In this document: positions 6,140 to 19,995 of the stretch, in pieces
Layout of the letters: each line of letters opens with the position of its first letter
Numbering within the stretch: position 1 is the stretch's first letter
Assembly (NCBI GenBank): GCA_024233835.1
Contig: JACKPC010000001.1
Span: 1,541,442-1,605,441, forward strand
Origin: Leptospiraceae bacterium
Lineage (GTDB): Bacteria > Spirochaetota > Leptospiria > Leptospirales > Leptospiraceae
Direction: 5' to 3'
DNA length: 64,000 nucleotides
Made by a program: the position numbers and the translations under genes
Notes under the pieces: model-generated
The model's database searches: none
What the model saw: only the letters and a program-made list of their open reading frames with translations
Told to the model about the DNA's origin: nothing

Positions 6140-6211
<72 letters not shown>

Positions 6212-7060: not shown

Positions 7061-9370
7061 TCAAGTAATATTCTGTATTCTTTCTTGAATTAAATTTGAA
7101 ATTCTATTGTAAAGATCATAATTTAAAGCTTCCTTATCTTTTATGATAATTGATAATACATAATTCTCATATTCATTTGTAATATCTTTTGCCCAAGGAA
7201 AGTCATTTCTTGTAACTACAACATAATATTTAGAGAAATCTTTAAAACTCATAAACGACCAAGTAGAAGATTGAATAGTTCCTTTACCTCTTAATTTTGA
7301 AGAGATATTACGATTATTATTTACTTCTGGAATGTTCTTATATTCATCTTTTGGAGTCGATTTATCAAACATTGTGCTTATTTCTTCTAAATTATTACCT
7401 CTTACTAATTTAAAGAACATTCTAACTGCACGATATTTGACGCGAGTATTTTTAACTGGAGAAAAGTAAGATAAAGTAATTGTAATTTCTCTCTTTCTTT
7501 GTCCTGAGAAAAATTCATCTGGTAAAGGAAGCTCAAAAAAATGGTTTTTATTATTTTCAATACTTTCTATCGCATAAAGAACTATAACATCATTTCCAGA
7601 TTTATATAAAAAATCTTCATTTACTTTTCCATATCCTACCATTTTAATCTTTTTCTCATCTTCAATGCTATCAGAAAAAACTATATTATCATGCTCCGCC
7701 ATTCCTACCAATAAAGCTCTTATTAATAATATATTTTCGATTTGACTTTGTACCAGTAACTTTCCTGCCAAATTAGTAATATATGGTGTAGAAAAACTTG
7801 TTCCACAGTTTTCTGAAAATATTTTTCCATCCAAAAAAGAAGAATTTAGTGATAATTCACCAAGTCCATGTTTGTGAATCAAACTAGTTCTATAATCAAA
7901 TGCTAAATTTCCACCATAAGCTACTAATTCTGGTTTTATACTTTCAGCAATACCGAAACCAATTCGAGAAAAAGGTGAGAGAGAATTTCTTGGTGCAATC
8001 GGTTGGTAAGAAGGATCATTAGGATATTTTATAGAAGATCTCGTTTGATCATATCTTGCGATACTTCCAACTGTAAGGGAATTTATTGAGTTTGAAGGTT
8101 CCAGAATATTATGGCCATTAAAAAAATATTCTGGATAATCATATCCGTTAAGAATTTCATCTTTTATAATGCTGGAGTCAATATTTCCGGTAGATATAAT
8201 AAATAATACTCCAAGTTCATGAGCAAGATTATCTAATATCATAGATAAAGAACTCGGTTTACCTCCTTTATAAGGTCTTTTGGAATCTCCTATCGATAAA
8301 TTAAATATTTTACAATTATATTCATTATGAAGTTCTCTTACTGCAAATTCGATTTGGTTTTCTATAAATTCAGGATGATATGCACTCTCTCGATCCAACA
8401 CCCTTCCACTAATTATCCAAAAATCTGGAATAAAACTATTATTTTCTAAATTAGCAGCAACATCCCCATACAAAGCAATTCCGGCAACAGATGTACCATG
8501 GCCACTTTCATCTTCAGAGGCTAATCCTTTTATATATGACTTTGTATCTCCAATAGAAGGTGATAATAATGGATGTCCTGAAGAAATACCACTATCCAAA
8601 ATAGCAATTCTGGGAGCTTTATCATCTGGAGCAACTGGTTGTGCTATGTTTTCAATATCAAAATTTAATAGAGAATACTTTAGGGTAAAATTTGGAGGTA
8701 CGTCAATAGTACGTACATCTCGATATTTAAATAATTCTTTATAATTAAAATGATTGCATTTGGCACGTAAGATTGTAAGAAATTTTTTAGAAATTTGATC
8801 TAAGATTTGAATATTATTTTTAGAAACAAAATTTTTAAATGCAAAAATCATTTGTTCTCTATGATAATTATTTTCTGTTGGCCATAATTCTATATCTAAC
8901 AAAAAGTCTTCAGTATCGGGTAAGCCTTCTCTTTTTAATACTTCGCCTTTTCTATCTTCTTCTGTCCATAGTTTAAATTCCCTTGATGCTTCAATCAATT
9001 CTTTTCGAGTAACTTTTCCTGTTGAAGCAAAAGTAGATAAACGCTTTTCAAATTCCTCCAAGGCATTTTCAGAAGCAAATAAAAGAACAATTTCATTACT
9101 TTCTTGGCTTACAATTGTTATACCTTCTATTGACTCAAAACCTGTCGGATCAAAACTTTCCATAGTTTTTAATTTTAATAATAGTCTATCATCAAAACCG
9201 GATATTTCTTCTGATTTTCTTATTATCTTAATAAGTTCTAATTCATCTTTTAATTTTTGTGCATGTGCACTTTTATCCCCGGTAAATTTTTTAGGATTAA
9301 AAGGTTTTCCTCTTCGCTCGTTAATTACTGTTTCTCTTTGGAATTGAATATGTTCGTAAATTTCAGGCAT
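7061..9370 (-). CDS. cytoplasmic S8 family subtilisin-like serine peptidase (IetS-like)
   Basis: Catalytic triad motifs in order D (AILDSGIS), H (GHGTSVAGIA), S (GTSFSTPYI). No signal peptide. About 240-aa N-terminal extension. Start overlaps the upstream ATPase stop (TAATG). Confidence 0.8.
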   Translation of the reverse strand: MPEIYEHIQFQRETVINERRGKPFNPKKFTGDKSAHAQKLKDELELIKIIRKSEEISGFDDRLLLKLKTMESFDPTGFESIEGITIVSQESNEIVLLFASENALEEFEKRLSTFASTGKVTRKELIEASREFKLWTEEDRKGEVLKREGLPDTEDFLLDIELWPTENNYHREQMIFAFKNFVSKNNIQILDQISKKFLTILRAKCNHFNYKELFKYRDVRTIDVPPNFTLKYSLLNFDIENIAQPVAPDDKAPRIAILDSGISSGHPLLSPSIGDTKSYIKGLASEDESGHGTSVAGIALYGDVAANLENNSFIPDFWIISGRVLDRESAYHPEFIENQIEFAVRELHNEYNCKIFNLSIGDSKRPYKGGKPSSLSMILDNLAHELGVLFIISTGNIDSSIIKDEILNGYDYPEYFFNGHNILEPSNSINSLTVGSIARYDQTRSSIKYPNDPSYQPIAPRNSLSPFSRIGFGIAESIKPELVAYGGNLAFDYRTSLIHKHGLGELSLNSSFLDGKIFSENCGTSFSTPYITNLAGKLLVQSQIENILLIRALLVGMAEHDNIVFSDSIEDEKKIKMVGYGKVNEDFLYKSGNDVIVLYAIESIENNKNHFFELPLPDEFFSGQRKREITITLSYFSPVKNTRVKYRAVRMFFKLVRGNNLEEISTMFDKSTPKDEYKNIPEVNNNRNISSKLRGKGTIQSSTWSFMSFKDFSKYYVVVTRNDFPWAKDITNEYENYVLSIIIKDKEALNYDLYNRISNLIQERIQNIT

Positions 9371-10365
9371 TATTTGTTTTCTCTTAATATATTTTGTCTT
9401 GATTCTTCTCGTAGATATGAAGTTTCTATATATCTATCTTCCAAAAATTCTTTTCCTTGCATTATCATTTCCTTAATTGCTCTACGAAGAATTCTTTCTA
9501 TATCAGCATGTGATAATCCCTTAAACTTCTGCGATAACTCATTTATATCTGTACGTAAATTTCTTCTGACACCCCTTAGTTTTAATTCAATCAGTTTTTT
9601 TATTTGTTCTTTATTAGGATAGCTGAAATTTAAAACTTCTTCAAATCTTCTCCATACTGCACTATCTAATGTTTTTTCATGATTGGTAGCGGCAATTAAT
9701 ATGCTATTTCCACGATAACTATCTAACATTTGCAATAAAGCATTGACTACTCGCTTTATTTCTCCATGCTCTGAATTATCGGCTCTTTCTCTACCCAGAG
9801 CATCAAATTCATCAAATAGTACTACCATATTTGTTTTATTGATGAAGTCAAAAACCTTTCTAAGATTTGCCGAGGTTTCTCCAAGATAGGATGAAACGAT
9901 TGAGTCTATTCTAATGATTGCCAAAGGTAATTCTAACTCGAATGCTATGACTTCTGCTGAAATTGTCTTGCCACAACCCGGTGGGCCATAAAATAATATT
10001 TTGTCTACCGGTTTCAAACCATGTAGTTTTAAAATCTCTCCTCGATTATGCTCCAATAAAATTTCTTCCATAATTGACTTGTTTTCATCAGAAAGAATAA
10101 TCTCATCTATTGAGCGGGTAGGGGTAATTATATGGATTAATGGTAAACCTTTTTCTTTATCATTCGGAATTTCAAGATTCAATATTTGAAAAGAATTTTT
10201 TTCTGGTTCTTTTCCATATAAAATTCTTTCTAAATCATTTGCTAATAAGTGATGCTTTTTAGCTCTTTCCTCATTGATTATTTCCTCTGCAACCTGTTTG
10301 AATGAGTCTTTATCTCCAGAAGTGCCAAATTGAATCATCTTGCGTAAAAGTTTTGAACTGGCCAT
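9370..10365 (-). CDS. AAA+ ATPase (IetA-like)
   Basis: Walker A GPPGCGKT, Walker B VVLFDEFD, second region of homology, arginine finger region (AATNHEKTLDSAVWRRF). Translationally coupled to the subtilase. Confidence 0.8.
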   Translation of the reverse strand: MASSKLLRKMIQFGTSGDKDSFKQVAEEIINEERAKKHHLLANDLERILYGKEPEKNSFQILNLEIPNDKEKGLPLIHIITPTRSIDEIILSDENKSIMEEILLEHNRGEILKLHGLKPVDKILFYGPPGCGKTISAEVIAFELELPLAIIRIDSIVSSYLGETSANLRKVFDFINKTNMVVLFDEFDALGRERADNSEHGEIKRVVNALLQMLDSYRGNSILIAATNHEKTLDSAVWRRFEEVLNFSYPNKEQIKKLIELKLRGVRRNLRTDINELSQKFKGLSHADIERILRRAIKEMIMQGKEFLEDRYIETSYLREESRQNILRENK

Positions 10366-10425: not shown

Positions 10426-13400
10426 TCACAGCCTATCATACTCTTCCAAAACACCCAGCTTTACTTCATCCTTAACCAGTGGGAATGTGCTGAGAATGTA
10501 TTCCAACTCTTCTCTTGTTAGTTTGTAAATCTTTGCAACCATAGCATCAATCTGGTTTTTCAAAGCCTGTCGTTCTTTTTCGACTTTCACACCATGAACC
10601 TCATGAGGCTTCTTACTGCCTTTCCCTTTCAAACCCACTTCTTCCAAAAGCTCGTCAAATTCTTCTGTAGTTCCCACAAGCTTCGCAGCTCTTTCGACTA
10701 ATTTAGAAAAGTAAGGATGGTCTTTATCCGACTGAAACCGCGGAATGGGAAGAGATAATAAGTAAAAAACATTTAATGTAGCTGATACTTTAAGTCTAAT
10801 TGTATAGTCTAAGATATAGCTATTCATTATGGATGAAAAAAATAACTGCTGAGAATTAGAAATGTTAGATTTTTCTATATTAATAGTAGCACAATTTACT
10901 TCTGATAACGATTTTTTAGGAATTATACTCGAAATTAAAGTTCGTTCATTAGTATTTGAAGCTATTCTTCTGTGCCCCCATCTATAATAATTGTAGTTAT
11001 AATGACTGACTTTTTCTAACATTTTATTATCTACCCAAAATTTTGGCTTATCATAATTTGAATCGTATTGCCAAATCATTTTACCTTCAAAAAGTGGAAT
11101 TCCATTTTTATTCTTATTAAATAAATAAGAGTTATTTGTAATATGTGATTCAGAAATAAGTTTCACATTCCATGTTCCTTCGATTTCTTCTCCCAATAGT
11201 GGATACTCTGCATATATTTTTTCTGTAATGTCGGATTCTTTCTTGGAGGAAAACTCCATGAGTGATAATGAATCGGGAGAAAATTTCTTTAGTGTTTCGA
11301 GGTTTACACTAACGTATTTTCCTTTCCTGTTATGTGCTTGCATCATTTCGTTTTCTGTTAGCATCATAAAGGCAGCGGGAACGTCTTTGGTTCCTTCTTT
11401 GGTTTTGATGGTGTTATAAGCAACAAATTTAAATCTACTATCTACATCCTCAAACATCTTCTTTCGATTTTCAAAGCCATATAAGAACTGAACTTTAGAT
11501 TCTGCAAAGAATAACTCTCGTAATTCCTTACAGCCAAGGTCTGTATAAAACCCCGATGGCATTACAATTCCAAGACTTCCTTTTGTTTTTAATAAGTAAA
11601 ACGCTCTTTCTAAGAAAAGTTTGTAGAGGTTTATATCTCCCTTGCCTCTCGCCGGATAGTCTTCACAACTTCTAAAGTATTCCGACACAGAGGAAAGGCC
11701 CATGCTGTATTCCATCCAGAGTTTCTTCAGCTTAGTATCTTTCTTGAGTGTTTCCTCTACTTTTTTCTTGGCCTGAATTTTATCCAATTTACGATAACCA
11801 TCTAAGTGCTTTTCAAAGAACTCCTGTGAATTGGGTTTCCAGGTTTCCCAGGGAGGGTTGAGTAGCATAATATCGAACCCGCCCTTGTTCATGATTTCCG
11901 AAAATTCCATCACCCAGTGAAAAGCATTCAAGTCTTCTGCCTGTATCTTGAATTCCTTAAATTGTTTTATAGCTGAAGTATCTTTCTTCAAGTCTATAAA
12001 ATCAATTTTATTCTTGGGCTTTACTTTCCATACACCTGAAATCTTGGTATTAAAATCCTTATGAAAAAGTTGTTTTAATGCACCTGTTTTCTGGTGAATT
12101 TCATCTCTTTTCTTGAGAGCAGCCTTTGGATTCTCCACTGAAAAGTAAGCCTTTATTAAATCTTCTCTCTCTTCAAAGGACTTTCGAATATCATAAAAAT
12201 CAAATAGTCTTTCGGTCTGTTGTTTCTTAGCTCCCGGAAATAATCCCTGTTGCTCTGCTTTACCCGTATTTTCAAAAGGAGAAGAAGTAAAACCGACAAG
12301 AGAATTCCCGCAGACAACATGAAAATCAATATTCGGAAGCGGTTCTTCTACCTTATCGGTAATACCCTCTATCATTGCAATAAACAGACGAAGTTTGGCA
12401 ATCTCGACTGCTTCCGGAAGAAGGTCTACTCCATAAATATTTTTACTGACTATAAATCTTCGAATTGTATAGATAGATGGAGAAGGGCTATCCATATCCT
12501 TCTTGTATTCTTTTTTCAGTGATTCCAGATTATTCGTCTTAACTACTTCGAGTAAGTTTAAATGTAATTCCGAAAGTTCATGCAAAGCTTCAATCAAGAA
12601 TTGACCGGAACCGCAGGCCGGGTCACATACGGTTATATTCGATAGCTTTTCATAATAAGCAAGGAGGTCTTTTTCAGAAGCCGAAGAAAGAAACTCCGAT
12701 ACTTTTATACACTTTATTTTTAGATTATTCTGAATAAAATATAAAAGAAAATTTTCAATTGTTTCCCTGGAAAGAAAGGAACTCAAGAAAGGTGGAGTAT
12801 AATACACACCCTGAGACTTGTTTTCACCCAGTGATTTTTCAAAAATATAACCTAAAATATAAGGGTCAATTACATCTTCATCGGTATCAGAACGTTCACT
12901 CGAATACCATAACCAGCTTTCTAAAAATGCAAAGATTTCCTGAAAGGCTTTATTGGGAATAGAAATGTCGGGATGTTTTTGTTCCAATTCATGCGTTAAA
13001 AAAAGTCCTCCATTGAGATAAGGAATTAACTCACCGGTTTCTTGAATCCAGGAAGCATCCCTATCTTCCAATTTGACACAGAGTGTTTCTAAGAAAAATC
13101 GTTTTAAAAAATTCTCATAGAAGTTACTTTTCTTGTTCTCATATTCCGCAAGCTTGCGGACCAGATACCTTTCATCTTTTTCTAAAAGATGTTTCTTCTG
13201 GAGAAAATACAGAAAGATAATTCTATCCAATAAGACCTGTGCATATAATCTCTTATCATCCGGATCTGCTACTCCTTGGATTTGTTTTACAAGCTGTAGT
13301 CTTTTTTTGGAATAGTCTGTATAAAATCTTTTGGAAACATCTTTTCTATCGAATAGGTCATCAAAGGTTTCAATCTGCTCGTATTTTAATTTAGAAACCC

Positions 13401-13749
13401 TTTGAATCCCTATTGGGTTTTCTCTATTTCTGATTTCTTCTTTTTTTATTGTATAACGAACAATTTTTGATTTTCCTTCATAACCTATTTTAACAAAAGT
13501 CATAGAAGAAAAATCTTGCGGAACGGCTAAAACACAATAGCGATTATATGTAAAGGAATTGATACGTTTGTTTATTTCAGATTTTTCCTCATAGAAGAAT
13601 ATTTCAATAAATTCGTCTTCTGCAATATTAAAAATGAATGCTCCATCATTTTCTCTGACCTGAAAACCCAAAAAAGAAAAATAGTTATACACATCATCTA
13701 TGGATTGAATTTCTAAAAACTTGCTCTTAAGCTGTTCTACCTTGGACAT
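10426..13749 (-). CDS. large gamma-class N6-adenine DNA methyltransferase, Type IIG R-M / PglX-like (1107 aa)
   Basis: Motif X GVYYTPP, motif I DPACGSGQFL, motif IV NPPW, in that order. Long N-terminal extension with a possible D...E-E-K nuclease-like segment, and a C-terminal TRD-sized region. Confidence 0.75.
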   Translation of the reverse strand: MSKVEQLKSKFLEIQSIDDVYNYFSFLGFQVRENDGAFIFNIAEDEFIEIFFYEEKSEINKRINSFTYNRYCVLAVPQDFSSMTFVKIGYEGKSKIVRYTIKKEEIRNRENPIGIQRVSKLKYEQIETFDDLFDRKDVSKRFYTDYSKKRLQLVKQIQGVADPDDKRLYAQVLLDRIIFLYFLQKKHLLEKDERYLVRKLAEYENKKSNFYENFLKRFFLETLCVKLEDRDASWIQETGELIPYLNGGLFLTHELEQKHPDISIPNKAFQEIFAFLESWLWYSSERSDTDEDVIDPYILGYIFEKSLGENKSQGVYYTPPFLSSFLSRETIENFLLYFIQNNLKIKCIKVSEFLSSASEKDLLAYYEKLSNITVCDPACGSGQFLIEALHELSELHLNLLEVVKTNNLESLKKEYKKDMDSPSPSIYTIRRFIVSKNIYGVDLLPEAVEIAKLRLFIAMIEGITDKVEEPLPNIDFHVVCGNSLVGFTSSPFENTGKAEQQGLFPGAKKQQTERLFDFYDIRKSFEEREDLIKAYFSVENPKAALKKRDEIHQKTGALKQLFHKDFNTKISGVWKVKPKNKIDFIDLKKDTSAIKQFKEFKIQAEDLNAFHWVMEFSEIMNKGGFDIMLLNPPWETWKPNSQEFFEKHLDGYRKLDKIQAKKKVEETLKKDTKLKKLWMEYSMGLSSVSEYFRSCEDYPARGKGDINLYKLFLERAFYLLKTKGSLGIVMPSGFYTDLGCKELRELFFAESKVQFLYGFENRKKMFEDVDSRFKFVAYNTIKTKEGTKDVPAAFMMLTENEMMQAHNRKGKYVSVNLETLKKFSPDSLSLMEFSSKKESDITEKIYAEYPLLGEEIEGTWNVKLISESHITNNSYLFNKNKNGIPLFEGKMIWQYDSNYDKPKFWVDNKMLEKVSHYNYNYYRWGHRRIASNTNERTLISSIIPKKSLSEVNCATINIEKSNISNSQQLFFSSIMNSYILDYTIRLKVSATLNVFYLLSLPIPRFQSDKDHPYFSKLVERAAKLVGTTEEFDELLEEVGLKGKGSKKPHEVHGVKVEKERQALKNQIDAMVAKIYKLTREELEYILSTFPLVKDEVKLGVLEEYDRL

Positions 13750-13796
13750 TACATTACCTCTGGGTTTATGACCATATTTATATATATCTTACGTTT

Positions 13797-13833
13797 ACAC
13801 TTCTATAAACTCTTTGATGCTGAGTTCTTTTCC
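13797..13833. repeat. copy 1 of an ~37-bp repeat corresponding to the 3' coding end of ORF 19048-19509 (…KELSIKEFIE-stop)
   Basis: ACTTCTATAAACTCTTTGATGCTGAGTTCTTTTCC is near-identical to 19050-19086 and 18146-18182. Confidence 0.7.
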
Positions 13834-13836
13834 TAT

Positions 13837-14190
13837 TTATAAAAGAAGAGAGTTTAAGATTTCTTTAATCTGGTTTTCTAAAACTGGAATATCATCTGTT
13901 ATGATATTCCAAACAACCTGATAATCAATACCAAAGTACTCATGAGTTATGATATTTCGAACACCGACAATACTTCTCCAATCAATATTATTGTATTCTA
14001 TTCTCATTTTATCTGAAATTCTTGCAGCTGCTTCTCCGATATCCTGTAAAGCTTTTGCACAAGCATATTTTGTTTTTAAATCATTCAGAAAATCTTGCTT
14101 ACTCAGTCCTTTTACAAATATTTGTATAACTTTAGTATTATCTAAAATATGTTTTAGCCTATCTATATCTGAAAGTTTTTCATTTCTCAT
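13837..14190 (-). CDS. hepT: HepT-like (DUF86/HEPN) toxin
   Basis: Conserved Rx4HxY motif (RNIITHEY). About 117 aa. Overlaps the upstream MntA gene. Confidence 0.8.
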   Translation of the reverse strand: MRNEKLSDIDRLKHILDNTKVIQIFVKGLSKQDFLNDLKTKYACAKALQDIGEAAARISDKMRIEYNNIDWRSIVGVRNIITHEYFGIDYQVVWNIITDDIPVLENQIKEILNSLLL

Positions 14191-14491
14191 ATATTAGAAT
14201 CTTATCCTTTTCTATTCTATTAGCAAAATCAAGTGTTTCATTATGATTGTCGTATAATGCACCGCTGGAAATGACATCTACTTCTATGGGAAACATTTCT
14301 TTAATATCCAAAATCATTCTTGAAAACAAAAGCCCCACTTTTTGCTCAGGTTCTAATTCTAAAAGTATATCCAGATCACTTTCATGATCCATTTCATTTC
14401 TTGCATAAGAACCGAATAAATAAACTTTTTTTATAGGTTTATCTGCTGCATAAGCAAACATTTTCTCTTTTACATCTTCTATAGAAATCAT
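14180..14491 (-). CDS. mntA: MntA-like minimal nucleotidyltransferase antitoxin
   Basis: GSYARNE...DSDLDILL (GS-x-n-DxD) Pol-beta NTase motif. 103 aa. 11-nt overlap with hepT. Confidence 0.8.
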   Translation of the reverse strand: MISIEDVKEKMFAYAADKPIKKVYLFGSYARNEMDHESDLDILLELEPEQKVGLLFSRMILDIKEMFPIEVDVISSGALYDNHNETLDFANRIEKDKILIYEK

Positions 14492-14520
14492 ATATATCTC
14501 TTTTTTATATTCTATCCTTT

Positions 14521-17500
14521 CTATATATAAATACTTAATACTAACTGGCTATGAATTTCCGAACTTTTGTAAAGACTTCCTCTCATACTGGAATCCTCTA
14601 AAATCACTTCATTATAGAATGTAAATAGAGCGGAAGCAAAATCATTAAAAGCGACTTTAGGAACCTGTTTAATGTTAATATTATATTTATTTAAAGTATC
14701 TTTTAATTTATTTGCTTTATCCGAAGAAAGCTGAGTCGTTCCCAGTATTTGCATCATTTCTTTAAAAACAATCTCTGCATCTTCTCGAATTGTTTTAGCA
14801 AACTCAAAAAAGTTCTCTTCCACGAAAAGAGCTTTTTGTTTTTTTAAACCCTGCAAAGTCTGTATAAGTTGAACCTGAATCCCCTTCACGGAACTCACTT
14901 TTTGAGAAACCTTATGAGGATCGGCTTCTTTAAGTCTTTCAATAAAGATTTCTTTAAATGCAAGATTTATCTCTTCTTCTGCCTTTTCCACCCATTCTTT
15001 ATTTTCCACTTCCACACGTGTAAAACCCTCTGACTGAAGATTAGCCTTTTCAAAGAACTCTTCCGGAAAAGCATATTCTACATTTTCATTTCCTTTTTTA
15101 CATAAGAATACACGGGAAAGAAGGTCTCTATTCTGATTCCGTTCTCCATAGATTTCATATAATTTATAGATGGTGTTAGGATTTTTATTGGTAATAGTAT
15201 AATATTCAGCTTTCTTTTTAGGAACACCCTTAAAATCAGAACTCCTGAGATGATTTTCTTTAGCTGCAACGAATAGCTTCGCTCTAAAGAAATCTTCTTC
15301 CGTTTCTCCTTCTATACCGGAAAAAAGAGAATTACTTTTACTGTTTATTTCATATTCACTTACGGAATTGGCATTATAATTCTTTTTAAGTTGTTCACCT
15401 ATAATCTGTGGATTGATCTCTTCTTCATCGGAACTTAAAATAGCCATTTCTTTTCCTAAAAGAGTATTTACCTGGCTTATTTTAGCACTTAAGATTTCGA
15501 GTAACTTTAAAAAACGCTCTAAAATTTTATCAGGTGTAAAATTAAAAACCTTAATTTTATTTTCAGAACCAATACGATTGATTCTACCCACTCTCTGTAC
15601 AATTTTCATTGGATTCCAGGGAAGGTCAAAATTGATAAGTAAATCTGCATCCTGTAAGTTTACACCTTCAGCTAAAACGTCGGTAGAAATTAAGAGATTT
15701 AATTCTTCACTTTCTGTTATATTTTCTACTTTTCTGGCTCTGGGTGCAAACTTATCTAAAACTTTAGATATTCTACCCGAAGTTCTATCATCACCACTTA
15801 CAGTATCAAATAATAAATCGATTTTATTATCTTCACAGGCTTGTTGAATATGATATTTAATATATTCTAAAGTATCCTTATAGGAACAAAAGCAAAGAGC
15901 CTTAATAAAATGAGAACGGTTTAATCTATCTAAGAAAATTTCTATCTTGGGCTCTTTAAGGCTTAGTGGTTCATCAGGTTTTTCTCGTAAAGGTATAATG
16001 TAAGATTCTATAAAATCATTTATTGTTTTTATATCAGTTTCACACCATTTTATAACGGTTTCTTTATCAATTAAATCCTCTTTTCCATCTTTTATATCTT
16101 CTGAATAATCCTCTAATTCCGGTTCTTCCTCTAATTTTTTCTGATTATATTTTTCAATAACTTCATTCCAGTCCTCAGAATCTATTTCGGAGCGAAGAGT
16201 TGTAATTTTTGCTTTGATGTTTTCAAGGGAACAGTAGAAAGAGTAAACACTGGATTCGATTCTTTTGAACAAAAGAAGCTTATACAAATAAGAAAGTGTT
16301 TCCCCATTGGAATTACCGGAAAGGCGTATATGGGGTAAAAATAAACTATCGAGGAATGAGTTTATATTTTCAAATATTGCTTCAAAGCCTCCTGTAAATT
16401 CGTATTCTATTTTATAAACAGTTGGTTCCTGAAACTCTAAAGGTTTACCTCCTACTTTTACATTCTTATATTTTTCTTTTATGGAAGACCTCATCCGAAG
16501 AAGCATCACAGAGTTTAAAATATCAATAATTCTTTTTTTAGCTCGCTCATAATCTGGATTATTTTCTAACTCACGAATACTGATTCCTTTACGAAGATTT
16601 TTAATTAGTTCTGAAAAAACTTGAAAACTGGATGGGTATAGACCTGCATTTGTAAGAGAAGCTTCTACTGTTGAAAGTTTTACCAGGTTTAATAAGTCGC
16701 TTACAGAGTTATTGAAAGGAGTTGCTGTTAATAACAAAACATCTGATCGAGAAGAATAAGGATGCAGTAGACTGATATGCTGATATAGCCTTGTATCTTT
16801 ATTTCTGGCTCTGTGAGCTTCATCTACTACAATTAGGTCAAATTTCTTTTTTCGTAATTTACTTTCTATGGCAGAAGGAAGCATTTGGCTTAACTTCCCC
16901 TGTGAAAGAAAAACTAAATCGGATGAAGCATCTATAGAAAAATATTTTGAAAGAGTTTCTTTCCACTGATGAAGAACAGTAGGAGGGGTTAGTATTAAAA
17001 CTTTTTTTCCTCTTTTATAGTATCTATAAATGACTTCGGAAGCTGTAAATGTTTTTCCGAGTCCTACAGAGTCAGAAACAATGGCTCCTCCAAATCGTTC
17101 TATTTTGTTTAAAATATTCTCAGCACCAATTCGTTGAAACTCAGCTAATTGATCAGTTCCTTGAAGTTCTTCTTCCTCCATCTTTCCAATAAAGTAATAA
17201 ACCATATACACAAGCATCTGAAAAGGAGTAAGGAATATATCTTCCCTTTTTTGAGTATGCTGTTTTTCTCTCAGGATTCCTTTTACAATCTGGAGTAATT
17301 CCGGACGAAAATCTATTCCTTCAGATTCCCATAGCTCATCAAACCATATTTTTAATTCGTTATATACCGGTATATCTGAAGAAGTTAGATTTAGCTCACT
17401 GTTTTCAGTAAGTCCACTTTTCGAAAAATTAGAAGAACCAACAATTGTTCTTACTTGTTCTATATTTCCCGGTAATACTGTTCGAGCAAGATAAAGCTTT

Positions 17501-17907
17501 GCATGAAAAAATCGATTTAACATCAACCGAATATGGATTTTATCATTTTCCAGCAGTTCAATAATTTTGAGTAGCTTTTCCTTTTCTAAACCGGAAACCT
17601 CAGTCTCAATATTTTGAATAATTTCTCTTTTTAATTCTGAATCAGTTTTTGGAATTTTAAATGCTGTTTCCAAAACCTTTGCAGTTGTATAATCCGTTCT
17701 TGGGCTTATCAGGAACTTAATCTGAACATCGTTTTTTTGGAAAAACTCATTATTTTCCAGACTATCCATAACCAGTTCAAATCCACTCAGATAGAAATAT
17801 CCTACGGCAATTCTCATTTCCCTGATATAAGGGAAAATTATGTGATTAATTACCCTATCAAACTGCCTATTTTCATCTCGGTTATCTATGAAAGCTGGAA
17901 ATTGCAT
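14521..17907 (-). CDS. PLD-family nuclease fused to SNF2/SF2 helicase (1128 aa); SauUSI / DISARM-DrmD+DrmC-like architecture
   Basis: N-terminal HxK(x)4D(x)6GSxN phospholipase-D motif (HAKLYLARTV…GSSNFSKSG). Then helicase motif I (GLGKT), DEAH box (IVVDEAHRARN), motif III (LLLTATP) and helicase-C motifs (QRVGRINRIG). Confidence 0.8.
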   Translation of the reverse strand: MQFPAFIDNRDENRQFDRVINHIIFPYIREMRIAVGYFYLSGFELVMDSLENNEFFQKNDVQIKFLISPRTDYTTAKVLETAFKIPKTDSELKREIIQNIETEVSGLEKEKLLKIIELLENDKIHIRLMLNRFFHAKLYLARTVLPGNIEQVRTIVGSSNFSKSGLTENSELNLTSSDIPVYNELKIWFDELWESEGIDFRPELLQIVKGILREKQHTQKREDIFLTPFQMLVYMVYYFIGKMEEEELQGTDQLAEFQRIGAENILNKIERFGGAIVSDSVGLGKTFTASEVIYRYYKRGKKVLILTPPTVLHQWKETLSKYFSIDASSDLVFLSQGKLSQMLPSAIESKLRKKKFDLIVVDEAHRARNKDTRLYQHISLLHPYSSRSDVLLLTATPFNNSVSDLLNLVKLSTVEASLTNAGLYPSSFQVFSELIKNLRKGISIRELENNPDYERAKKRIIDILNSVMLLRMRSSIKEKYKNVKVGGKPLEFQEPTVYKIEYEFTGGFEAIFENINSFLDSLFLPHIRLSGNSNGETLSYLYKLLLFKRIESSVYSFYCSLENIKAKITTLRSEIDSEDWNEVIEKYNQKKLEEEPELEDYSEDIKDGKEDLIDKETVIKWCETDIKTINDFIESYIIPLREKPDEPLSLKEPKIEIFLDRLNRSHFIKALCFCSYKDTLEYIKYHIQQACEDNKIDLLFDTVSGDDRTSGRISKVLDKFAPRARKVENITESEELNLLISTDVLAEGVNLQDADLLINFDLPWNPMKIVQRVGRINRIGSENKIKVFNFTPDKILERFLKLLEILSAKISQVNTLLGKEMAILSSDEEEINPQIIGEQLKKNYNANSVSEYEINSKSNSLFSGIEGETEEDFFRAKLFVAAKENHLRSSDFKGVPKKKAEYYTITNKNPNTIYKLYEIYGERNQNRDLLSRVFLCKKGNENVEYAFPEEFFEKANLQSEGFTRVEVENKEWVEKAEEEINLAFKEIFIERLKEADPHKVSQKVSSVKGIQVQLIQTLQGLKKQKALFVEENFFEFAKTIREDAEIVFKEMMQILGTTQLSSDKANKLKDTLNKYNINIKQVPKVAFNDFASALFTFYNEVILEDSSMRGSLYKSSEIHSQLVLSIYI

Positions 17908-17967
17908 GGTTCGTTCACCTTATACCGAAAGTCGATAGGAATTAAAGTAAAAATCCTTCCCCCTCTA

Positions 17968-18115
17968 ATTTTTCAGAATAATCTACAATTTTAGTTTATG
18001 AATTAAGAAAGACAAGAATTTTACAGTCATAAATGGGAAAAAGTCATGAAATTGGGTTTTAATGCAAACTTCCCACAAACATCCACAGTTTTCGGTTTGT
18101 ATTTCAGTGTTATCG
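17968..18115. repeat. copy A of a ~150-bp repeat homologous to the region upstream of ORF 19048-19509 (19521-19665)
   Basis: Roughly 85% identity over about 150 bp, judged by eye alignment (TTTTTCAGAATAATCTACAA…AAACATCCACAGTTTTCG…). Sits immediately upstream of the PLD-SNF2 gene start. Confidence 0.7.
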
Positions 18116-18145
18116 AGAGAAAGGAAAGCTTTTAACTGGTTTTTA

Positions 18146-18243
18146 TACTTCTATAAATTCTTTGATACTGAGTTCTTTTCCTTTTTTCAGAATAATCTAC
18201 AAATTTAGTTTAGGAATTTAAAAAGACAAGAGTTTCTGTAATG
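18146..18243. repeat. junction: copy 2 of the 37-bp gene-3'-end repeat directly abutting a truncated (~60 bp) copy of the upstream-region repeat
   Basis: TACTTCTATAAATTCTTTGATACTGAGTTCTTTTCC followed by TTTTTTCAGAATAATCTACAAATTTAGTTTAGGAATTTAAAAAGACAAGAGTTT. Confidence 0.7.
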
Positions 18244-18514
18244 GATCTTCTTCTACTTCAATACTTTCTTCATATAATACAGCAGGATCTAAGTCGATGC
18301 AGTTATAAGGATCAAAAGTACCGCTTACATCCCAGGCCAGAGTATTATTCATTACTGTACATTTTTCAAAAAAAAACGACTCATCCTGTAATTTACAAAA
18401 AACTCCCTTATCTATAAGATGACTGATGTCATAGAGTTTAATCTTACCATCATCAAAATATAGGTATACTTTATGATTTTCAGTTGGGAAAACTTGAACT
18501 ATTTTAGGTATCAT
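18218..18514 (-). CDS. DUF2442-family protein
   Basis: 98 aa. Pattern V-x-F-DG…L…FDP…DLDP…LY typical of DUF2442. Adjacent to a DUF4160 gene. Confidence 0.6.
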   Translation of the reverse strand: MIPKIVQVFPTENHKVYLYFDDGKIKLYDISHLIDKGVFCKLQDESFFFEKCTVMNNTLAWDVSGTFDPYNCIDLDPAVLYEESIEVEEDPLQKLLSF

Positions 18515-18593
18515 TAAAATTCTCCAGTATCAAATCGGGTCAATTTTTTTTATTTCTCCATGCTGCATGGCTGATTCCCAGTTTTCTAATAAC

Positions 18594-18776
18594 TCATTCT
18601 GACCAGGCTAAAACTAACTTTAATTGCCTGGAAGGAAGAGCACCCTTTATAATTACAGAGTTATTTATATCAACGATAGCCTGTAAGTCTCCATATTCTG
18701 CATGGAAATGGGGTGGCATGTGATCATTCCAATACATGTATATTTTAATACCAAAAAATTCCGAAACAAGTGGCAT
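18594..18776 (-). CDS. DUF4160-family protein
   Basis: 60 aa. MP…FFGIKIYMYWNDHMPPHFHAEYG matches the DUF4160 hallmark (…H-PPHFH…). Commonly paired with DUF2442. Confidence 0.65.
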   Translation of the reverse strand: MPLVSEFFGIKIYMYWNDHMPPHFHAEYGDLQAIVDINNSVIIKGALPSRQLKLVLAWSE

Positions 18777-18788
18777 ATTCTATCCTTT

Positions 18789-19043
18789 CTATATATAAAA
18801 ACTAAAGACTTCCAGTCTTCCTTTTATCTTTGTTAGAATTACTTCAGCAATATATCTGCACCACCCAACCGCGCGGTTTAAAAGATCGACTTGATGATTG
18901 GCTCGTGTTGAAGAACCATCTGCTTTTAGTGGCTTCCCGCAAATTCCGTACTTATAGATGTCTTTCTTTTCATTATCTATAATTTGATAAAGATGATGTT
19001 CTTCTTCACTATCATGTGAATTACCATGAACTTTTTTTGCCAT
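18789..19043 (-). CDS. hypothetical protein (84 aa)
   Basis: ORF only. Weak GIY-YIG-like YQII…IYKYGI segment, not enough for a call. Confidence 0.35.
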   Translation of the reverse strand: MAKKVHGNSHDSEEEHHLYQIIDNEKKDIYKYGICGKPLKADGSSTRANHQVDLLNRAVGWCRYIAEVILTKIKGRLEVFSFYI

Positions 19044-19047
19044 CTTC

Positions 19048-19509
19048 TTACCTTTCTATAAACTCTTTGATGCTGAGTTCTTTTCCTTTACCCCAGGCTT
19101 CCCTGTTGAAATAGGTTTCATACAATCGTTTGGGAGAATACTCCCAGTCTTCCTTTCCGGTTTTTTGGGTATATGCGTCTTTTGCTACATATAAAAGGTC
19201 TTCGGATGTATCAGCGGGCATTTGTTCCGGGTTTTCGATGACACTGTAATAAAACTTTTTTCCTTTTTCTACAGTTGAGACGCGGGAATATAAGAAACTA
19301 TCAACCGAGAATGAATCTTCTTCTGAATAGCCTACAGCTTTTGCATATTCCGGGCCATCGAGTTTAAAGAGTAAGTCTGTAAGAATTTCCTCAAATGAGT
19401 AAATTTCGGATATAGTTCTTTTGGAAAGATTATCTACCAGAACATCGATATTGAGTGCATTATTTTCTTCAGCTTCCTGTAGTATTTCCCAGAATTGGTT
19501 TTCTTCCAC
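19048..19509 (-). CDS. hypothetical protein (DUF4240-like), probable GTG start with strong SD; resident gene whose ends are repeated across the island
   Basis: ORF. AAGGAG SD 7 nt upstream of GTG 19509. 3' end 19050-19086 and upstream region 19521-19665 are both repeated elsewhere in the island. Confidence 0.5.
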   Translation of the reverse strand: MEENQFWEILQEAEENNALNIDVLVDNLSKRTISEIYSFEEILTDLLFKLDGPEYAKAVGYSEEDSFSVDSFLYSRVSTVEKGKKFYYSVIENPEQMPADTSEDLLYVAKDAYTQKTGKEDWEYSPKRLYETYFNREAWGKGKELSIKEFIER

Positions 19510-19520
19510 TTCCTTACTCC

Positions 19521-19665
19521 TTTTTTCAGAATAATCTACAAATTTAGTTTAGGATTTTAAAAAGACAAGAGTTTTACAGTCATAAATGTGAAAAAATTAT
19601 GAAATAGGGACTTTATACATATTTCGGATAAACATCCACAGTTTTCGTTCCGCATTTCACTGATA
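19521..19665. repeat. copy B (upstream region of ORF 19048-19509) of the ~150-bp repeat
   Basis: Homologous to 17968-18115 and partially to 18183-18243. Confidence 0.7.
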
Positions 19666-19688
19666 TACAACCCCTATATAAGCGATAT

Positions 19689-19804: not shown

Positions 19805-19995
19805 CGTCCCTATTTCAGTGATATTCTGTAGTAAGCAGCTCAGTTTATACTTCGATTTTTCTCATCACGAGCACCGGAAGTTAAGAGAAAGTGTTAATAC
19901 GAGTGAGTTTACTGATGTTACCCAAAAAGCGCTTGTTAAGAAAGCTCATTCTATACGAATGAGCGATTTACAGCAGATGATTATGCCAAACTGCA

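Follow-up and report, generated by a model that had tools for sequence, protein, structure and literature searches.

In a 64-kb stretch of a Leptospiraceae metagenome-assembled genome (MAG), hereafter the window, a defence island carries three families of short direct repeats, R, U and M, which surround genes of toxin–antitoxin (TA) type and a gene for a helicase-nuclease, HKD(PLD)-SNF2 (HKD-SNF2). We propose, with a probability of roughly 55%, that these repeats are recombination scars left by two resident genes of which further copies have been lost: R and U stem from a DUF4240 gene and M from HKD-SNF2. All genes of the region lie on the minus strand, in the order U1, DUF4240, Tox-URI2, DUF4160, DUF2442, Ufrag-R2, U2, HKD(PLD)-SNF2, MntA, HepT, R3, an MmeI/Eco57I-type methylase, IetA and IetS (Table 1).

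An earlier note on this DNA had reported that the 3′ end (R) and the upstream region (U) of one gene recur in the island, and both repeats are real and far beyond chance, with 0 matches expected for each R and U pattern in dinucleotide shuffles of the window. U1 and U2 share 82.8% identity over 145 nt, and Ufrag, taken at 18179-18235, matches U1 (19518-19574) at 98% over 57 nt. For R, 34 of 34 nt are identical between R1 (19054-19087) and R3 (13801-13834), R1 (19054-19089) and R2 (18149-18184) agree at 94%, and R3 and R2, compared over the full extents given in Table 1, at 91%. A sensitive self-comparison of the window returned no further copies of R, U or M, and the repeats are confined to 13.8-19.8 kb. 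Independent ENA, NCBI and Logan contigs span every junction at 99.9-100% identity, which rules out an assembly artefact; where Logan contigs end at a repeat, this is due solely to their k of 31.

The earlier note had traced the repeats to the ends of a resident gene, and this gene belongs to the DUF4240 family. Its product has the C-terminal tail G.ELSI.EF(I/L)E, which three homologues (56-62% identity) have retained, and R is thus derived from the coding 3′ end of the gene. Compared in frame, R2 and R3 differ at three places (AGT/AGC, GAA/GAG and GTA/GTG), all of them third-position and synonymous; both close with Val-stop, and R1 of the intact gene with Arg-stop. Because the differences are only synonymous, R2 and R3 can be read as relics of once-functional, separately diverged DUF4240 copies, and from their codons they look like gene copies that diverged under selection rather than like a copied non-coding site.

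The U region was absent upstream of distant DUF4240 homologues and appears to be a local duplication. It probably supplies predicted promoters: U1 contains the promoter-like hexamers ATGACT-18-TAAAAT and TTGTCT-16-TAAATT, which recur at the same positions in U2, in a scan that overall did not rise above chance. We also considered U as a structured RNA and rejected this, as the only Rfam matches were three tRNAs and the fold z-scores ranged from +0.6 to +1.3. The 3′ end of U (19522-19549 in the window) shares a 28-nt exact identity (30/31 when extended) with positions 1203-1230 of a contig (L015) from a cyanobacterial (Phormidesmis) MAG, located in the gap between two divergent insertion sequence (IS) genes, an IS200-type tnpA and an IS605 tnpB. 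In the window as in that contig the match ends 12-13 nt before a start codon, and the flanks are not significantly similar; the identity may be due to chance or to a shared core promoter.

As for the function of DUF4240, the gene is found elsewhere with a stand-alone Tox-URI2 gene within a few nt downstream, or with an HNH_2 gene after 182 nt (L028 134-924, L030 3-818, L026 233-1815). This suggests that DUF4240 may be an antitoxin or immunity partner of small nuclease toxins such as Tox-URI2. The AlphaFold model of DUF4240 is poor, with a predicted local distance difference test score (pLDDT) of 50; PDB and NCBIfam yielded no match, a literature search found nothing on the family, and no relatives were confirmed in JGI metagenomes.

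The third repeat family, M, was absent from the earlier note. Its two copies, X and Y, are 36 nt long and identical at 33 of 36 positions, with 0 matches expected by chance. The first 21 nt encode the C-terminus of HKD-SNF2 (...LSIYI-stop), and the C-termini of homologues are alike (...SIYV, ...TIYI, ...ILYI). Copy Y lies at the native end of the intact HKD-SNF2 gene, and copy X reads as the relic of a second, lost HKD-SNF2 gene end. Copy X is fused in frame to the Tox-URI2 gene, where it replaces the last ~25 residues; the Tox-URI2 gene is truncated, since homologues run to 103-104 residues. At its other end copy X meets the start codon of DUF4160, a gene that is itself decayed. A different reading frame encodes the C-terminal part of the DUF4160 protein (ELLENWESAMQHGEIKKIDPI); once repaired, the protein matches the Pfam profile over its full length, and the NCBI record lists no protein for the gene. 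Independent assemblies share this frameshift, and DUF4160 is therefore a real pseudogene and not a sequencing error. As a side observation, two MEGAHIT-type assemblies break identically within copy X, at 18798/18810 (the ends of L002, L003, L023 and L024), and not at copy Y; shared reads, low coverage or population heterogeneity may account for these breaks.

Table 1 Features of the repeat region and its surroundings (positions in the 64-kb window)
Feature	Position	Strand	Description
U1	19522-19666	-	145-nt region upstream of the intact DUF4240 gene
DUF4240 gene	19048-19509	-	intact, 153 aa; Pfam 4.3e-22
R1	19054-19089	-	last 12 codons of the intact DUF4240 gene
Tox-URI2 nuclease toxin gene	18789-19043	-	Pfam 1.4e-17; 3′-truncated at about residue 77; last 7 codons from M
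M copy X	18775-18810	-	last 7 codons, stop and 14 nt of HKD-SNF2; ends at the DUF4160 start codon
DUF4160 gene	18530-18776	-	frameshifted near 18597
DUF2442 gene	18218-18514	-	last 5 codons and stop inside Ufrag
Ufrag	18183-18235	-	3′ 53-57 nt of U; directly abuts R2
R2	18142-18186	-	putative DUF4240 3′-end relic, closes ...EFIEV-stop
U2	17969-18113	-	diverged U copy; 28 nt after R2, 61 nt before the HKD-SNF2 start
HKD(PLD)-SNF2 helicase-nuclease	14521-17907	-	1128 aa, intact
M copy Y	14507-14542	-	native 3′ end of HKD-SNF2 plus 14 nt
MntA	14180-14491	-	intact; overlaps HepT (TA pair)
HepT	13837-14190	-	intact; overlaps MntA (TA pair)
R3	13794-13838	-	putative DUF4240 3′-end relic, ...EFIEV-stop; starts 2 nt after the HepT stop, ends 46 nt before the methylase start
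MmeI/Eco57I-type (type IIG-like) methylase	10426-13749	-	1107 aa; conserved partner of HKD-SNF2
23-nt tandem repeat ACAGTCCGTATCATAGTAATGAA	19689-19800	-	4.9 copies, 87% identity
Island border, one side	6140-6211		tRNA-Pro
Island border, other side			core MFS/xseB/xseA cluster

The position of R3 is best understood from the genes on its two sides. When HKD-SNF2 homologues of 42-46% identity were compared in five other lineages, three of the five (L034; L035-L037; and L038, Leptospira santarosai) had a 1000-1120-aa MmeI/Eco57I-type methylase directly after HKD-SNF2, with a spacing from overlap to a 17-nt gap. These methylases share 47%, 44% and 36% identity, respectively, with that of the window. 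In Leptospira and in further spirochaetes, HKD-SNF2 and the methylase form a conserved restriction-like system of two genes, for which the best PADLOC match is only the candidate model 'HKD+Snf2'. In the window, MntA, HepT and R3 occupy 771 nt between the two genes. Since the genes are paired elsewhere and the methylase lies beyond R3 here, MntA-HepT-R3 constitutes a 771-nt insert that splits the pair, and R3 lies inside an operon, given that the two genes are conserved neighbours in other lineages. The inserted genes, a minimal nucleotidyltransferase overlapping a HEPN gene, are predicted to encode a type VII TA system of the MntA/HepT kind (Pfam NTP_transf_2 1.6e-12 for MntA and HepT-like 1.1e-26 for HepT; the NCBIfam equivalogs match below their cut-offs), and variants of both of 98-99% identity occur on short contigs from other samples. 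HEPN/MNT modules within related helicase-methylase operons have been noted before (PMC12839542).

Two further lineages carry other material between HKD-SNF2 and the methylase: a 67-aa antitoxin-like open reading frame (ORF) and a 45-aa C-terminal fragment of a ParE/RelE toxin in L042, and a GC-rich hairpin element together with a DUF559 endonuclease gene in L041. Thus, in three of the six systems (the window, L041 and L042) small inserts follow just after the HKD-SNF2 stop codon; neither the L041 nor the L042 insert has flanking repeats comparable to those of the window. The L041 element (8470-8607, 138 nt, between HKD-SNF2 and DUF559) has GC-rich palindromic hairpins (CCCCCTTTGCGAAAGGGGG) and imperfect terminal inverted repeats; it looks like a miniature inverted-repeat transposable element (MITE) or a repetitive extragenic palindromic (REP)-type insertion, and the 48-aa ORF called there is probably spurious.

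The split pair also decides how the repeats are to be grouped. In the earlier note, three units were described between U and R: an intact one (unit 1), one emptied of its gene body (unit 2, Ufrag joined straight to R2) and one in which the body was replaced by a 4.3-kb defence cargo, U2-[PLD-SNF2/MntA/HepT]-R3 (unit 3). The intact unit, the emptied unit and a U copy ahead of other genes are indeed present, but the third does not hold as a body-replaced unit: the supposed cargo is no coherent unit, as it cuts through a conserved gene pair and leaves the methylase outside. Moreover, the two ends of unit 3 differ in history, because U2 shares just 83% identity with U1, against 34 of 34 positions shared by R3 and R1. 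A repeated frame M...R is better supported by the sequence than the U...R unit. It surrounds two TA-like pairs, as M-[DUF4160, DUF2442]-Ufrag/R2 and M-[MntA, HepT]-R3. On the left, M reaches the start codon of each pair or stops right beside it; on the right stands R. The frame copies are ~92-93% identical, and no similarity between their interiors, DUF4160/DUF2442 and MntA/HepT, was detectable. The observation that differing genes stand between the same short flanks was right, with M...R as the flanks. At the emptied unit-2 junction the sequence reads CTGAAAAAAGGAAAAG, as it would if a deletion had joined the AAAGGA that precedes the DUF4240 start to the AAAGGA of the gene tail.

We infer the following order and mechanism of events. 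An ancestral segment HKD-SNF2 - [small TA slot] - U - DUF4240 - methylase would have stood beside a U-DUF4240-Tox-URI2 module. The segment would have existed in two versions, one with DUF4160/DUF2442 and one with MntA/HepT, whose frames were ~92-93% identical, and these would then have become stacked in tandem by homology-anchored recombination, either by single-crossover integration of a homologous fragment from a relative or by unequal crossing-over. Deletions would have trimmed the array: both additional DUF4240 bodies would have been lost, one of them exactly between the two AAAGGA microhomologies, one HKD-SNF2 copy would have been cut to 7 codons and fused to the truncated Tox-URI2, and DUF4160 would have gained its frameshift. 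Today the repeats would serve only as substrates for RecA-type deletion or duplication. This scenario accounts for the three U, three R and two M copies, the shared frame, the split operon, the fused and truncated Tox-URI2 gene and the pseudogenes, and the erosion fits the reported loss of TA systems by deletion or toxin pseudogenization (PMC13617665).

Several points weigh against it. The history is rebuilt from one genome, with no intermediate or alternative arrangement observed, and it takes several steps: one stacking or more, plus three or four deletions. The identity of the non-coding R3 to R1 (34/34) calls for recent gene conversion or suggests a function of R. Furthermore, the borders of the unit-3 cargo (CTGAAAAA up to the left border and AGGAAAAG from the right one) equal the empty unit-2 junction to the nucleotide, a coincidence that is somewhat unexpected for independent deletions and that A-rich microhomology may explain. 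Finally, unrelated TA pairs that share both flanks could mean a more regular process of exchange.

A different history, possible although unlikely, starts from a poly-immunity array. Here, U-DUF4240 would have been triplicated in tandem in this genome, and the HKD-SNF2 system and the TA pairs would have landed later by independent illegitimate insertions, with no stacking. Such loci, with homogeneous or heterogeneous poly-immunity, have been described for polymorphic toxin systems (PMC3482391); DUF4240 is a conserved upstream partner of small nuclease toxins, and the three U and three R copies share one orientation. This scenario, however, leaves M copy X, the second HKD-SNF2 3′ relic, unexplained, as well as the shared left flank, in addition to the right one, of both TA pairs. 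It places a DUF4240 copy between HKD-SNF2 and the methylase only by chance, and the divergence from unit 1 is discordant (83% for U2 and 100% for R3).

The earlier note had offered, as one of two readings, a mobile cassette with conserved termini. Under this model, defence modules are regularly swapped between U and R (or M and R), which act as the conserved linkers or termini of a dedicated cassette system. This agrees with the two unrelated TA-like pairs in the same M...R frame, with the empty U-R unit whose junction equals the unit-3 cargo borders and with the other small modules held at the junction after HKD-SNF2 in L041 and L042. We consider it clearly improbable. The repeats are pieces of ordinary genes rather than specialized sites, U2...R3 cuts through a conserved gene pair, and the L041 and L042 inserts lack comparable flanking repeats. 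Recombinase or transposase domains were found neither in the island ORFs nor in the neighbours scanned, which did not include every ORF of the window, and the same ORFs yielded no IntI with attI next to the array. The borders show no attC- or IS200-like hairpins and no inverted termini, and R2, R3, M and U gave fold z-scores of -1.6 to +1.3 as DNA and RNA. There was likewise no TnpA/TnpB and no terminal or subterminal inverted repeat of IS200/IS605 or MITE type, the sole link being the 28-nt identity to the cyanobacterial IS605 intergenic region. Nor did copies turn up in other genomes, metagenomes or viral contigs: an exact-pattern scan of 185,579 GTDB species genomes with a 20-mer of U returned only chance matches and that one 28-nt match, neither JGI metagenomes nor IMG/VR contained the R pattern, IMG/VR also lacked the M pattern, and two viral matches to the U 20-mer fall in unrelated coding sequence. 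The mobile cassette is thus unsupported.

A narrower idea, which we rate as no more probable than such a cassette system, takes up the recurrent inserts. The junction after the HKD-SNF2 stop may be a dedicated landing slot of the two-gene restriction-like family, in which small TA or nuclease modules are exchanged repeatedly, with M and U-DUF4240 as homology arms in this lineage. If true, this slot would amount to a recombinase-free cassette system inside a defence operon.

Tandem site-specific integration appears very improbable. R would then be an att site at the 3′ end of DUF4240, and two integrase-less islands (R1-R2 and R2-R3) would have been inserted by an integrase encoded elsewhere, in line with direct repeats of 34-45 nt that are identical to the 3′ end of the intact gene and with the intact copy at the array end. 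Yet Tox-URI2, the gene that follows R1 at once, natively adjoins DUF4240 in other lineages, R3 lies inside the HKD-SNF2/methylase pair, the segments between the repeats are not self-contained, and no integrase was found in the island or nearby. In addition, the synonymous differences between R2 and R3 are those of gene relics and unlike copied att cores. For chance similarity or a metagenome assembly artefact nothing speaks beyond the source being a MAG, and both are refuted by the shuffles described above and by the junctions confirmed in independent assemblies of several samples.

The surroundings identify the locus as a defence island: a block of atypical composition, set between core genes, holds several known defence systems. 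The block is 13.4 kb long with 26-37% GC, the flanks have 40-45% GC, and PADLOC matches in it comprise IetA/IetS, HKD+Snf2 and type IIG. The IetA/IetS pair (an AAA ATPase and a subtilase; 7061-10365) is complete, with PADLOC values of 1.7e-215 for IetS and 5.7e-103 for IetA. A search for direct repeats at either end of the island, or for att sites derived from tRNA genes, gave nothing above chance. All retrievable contigs that carry the window proteins represent essentially one strain, at 99.9-100% identity to the window. For the flanking MFS gene, the nearest orthologue has 70% identity and stands in a different, non-syntenic context. Between the terminator-like hairpin of the MFS gene (19944-19964) and U1, at the boundary in GC content of the island, lies a 23-nt tandem repeat that has no counterpart anywhere else in the window and could be an array of protein-binding sites.

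Among known systems, integron cassette arrays also consist of co-oriented small modules separated by short repeats. In contrast to integrons, this locus has no IntI and no attC hairpins, and its repeats are pieces of coding sequence. Tandem integrative islands, such as those that target tRNA genes, carry on their flanks duplicates of the 3′ end of the gene they target. The direct repeats of the window resemble these in that they equal the 3′ end of an intact gene (R1 against R3 34/34, against R2 94%), but the integrase is missing and the segments bounded by the repeats do not stand on their own. The stand-alone Tox-URI2 beside repeated copies of a putative protective partner recalls the poly-immunity loci and stand-alone cassettes of polymorphic toxin systems (Zhang et al. 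2012, PMC3482391). Here, however, there is no adjacent full-length secreted toxin gene, as MFS, xseB and xseA lie upstream, DUF4240 is not a described immunity family, and only one copy is intact. An MNT/HEPN pair lodged in an operon that encodes an HKD-Swi2/Snf2 helicase and an N6-methylase is likewise known from the auxiliary HEPN/MNT effectors of restriction–modification (RM)-like operons related to bacteriophage exclusion (BREX) systems (PMC12839542). The DUF499 ATPase and DUF3780 of the type-2 BR systems were not seen here, and because the insert carries the foreign gene relic R3, we take it as a secondary insertion, unlike the arrangement in the BREX-related operons.

Two further parallels are the acquisition and erosion of chromosomal TA systems and the defence islands. 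With the former (Belot et al. 2026, PMC13617665) the locus shares decayed toxin genes, a surviving antitoxin-like DUF4240 gene and partial deletions, and it differs in that relics are reused as identical flanks around different TA pairs. Like other defence islands and hotspots, which are bounded by core genes and gain and lose systems by recombination, it is a low-GC 13.4-kb block that packs IetAS, HKD-SNF2 with a type IIG-like methylase and MntA/HepT; here, in addition, internal gene-end relics mark the module borders. The locus calls for no new mobility mechanism and is an ordinary but instructive case of defence-island mosaicism and TA erosion. It illustrates how such an island is rebuilt, as gene-end relics reveal former module neighbours, in this case a TA pair inserted in a restriction-like operon and two versions of one segment that were probably stacked. 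The recurrent inserts at the HKD-SNF2/methylase junction, found in three of six lineages, are a modest lead on where TA 'backup' modules settle in defence operons.

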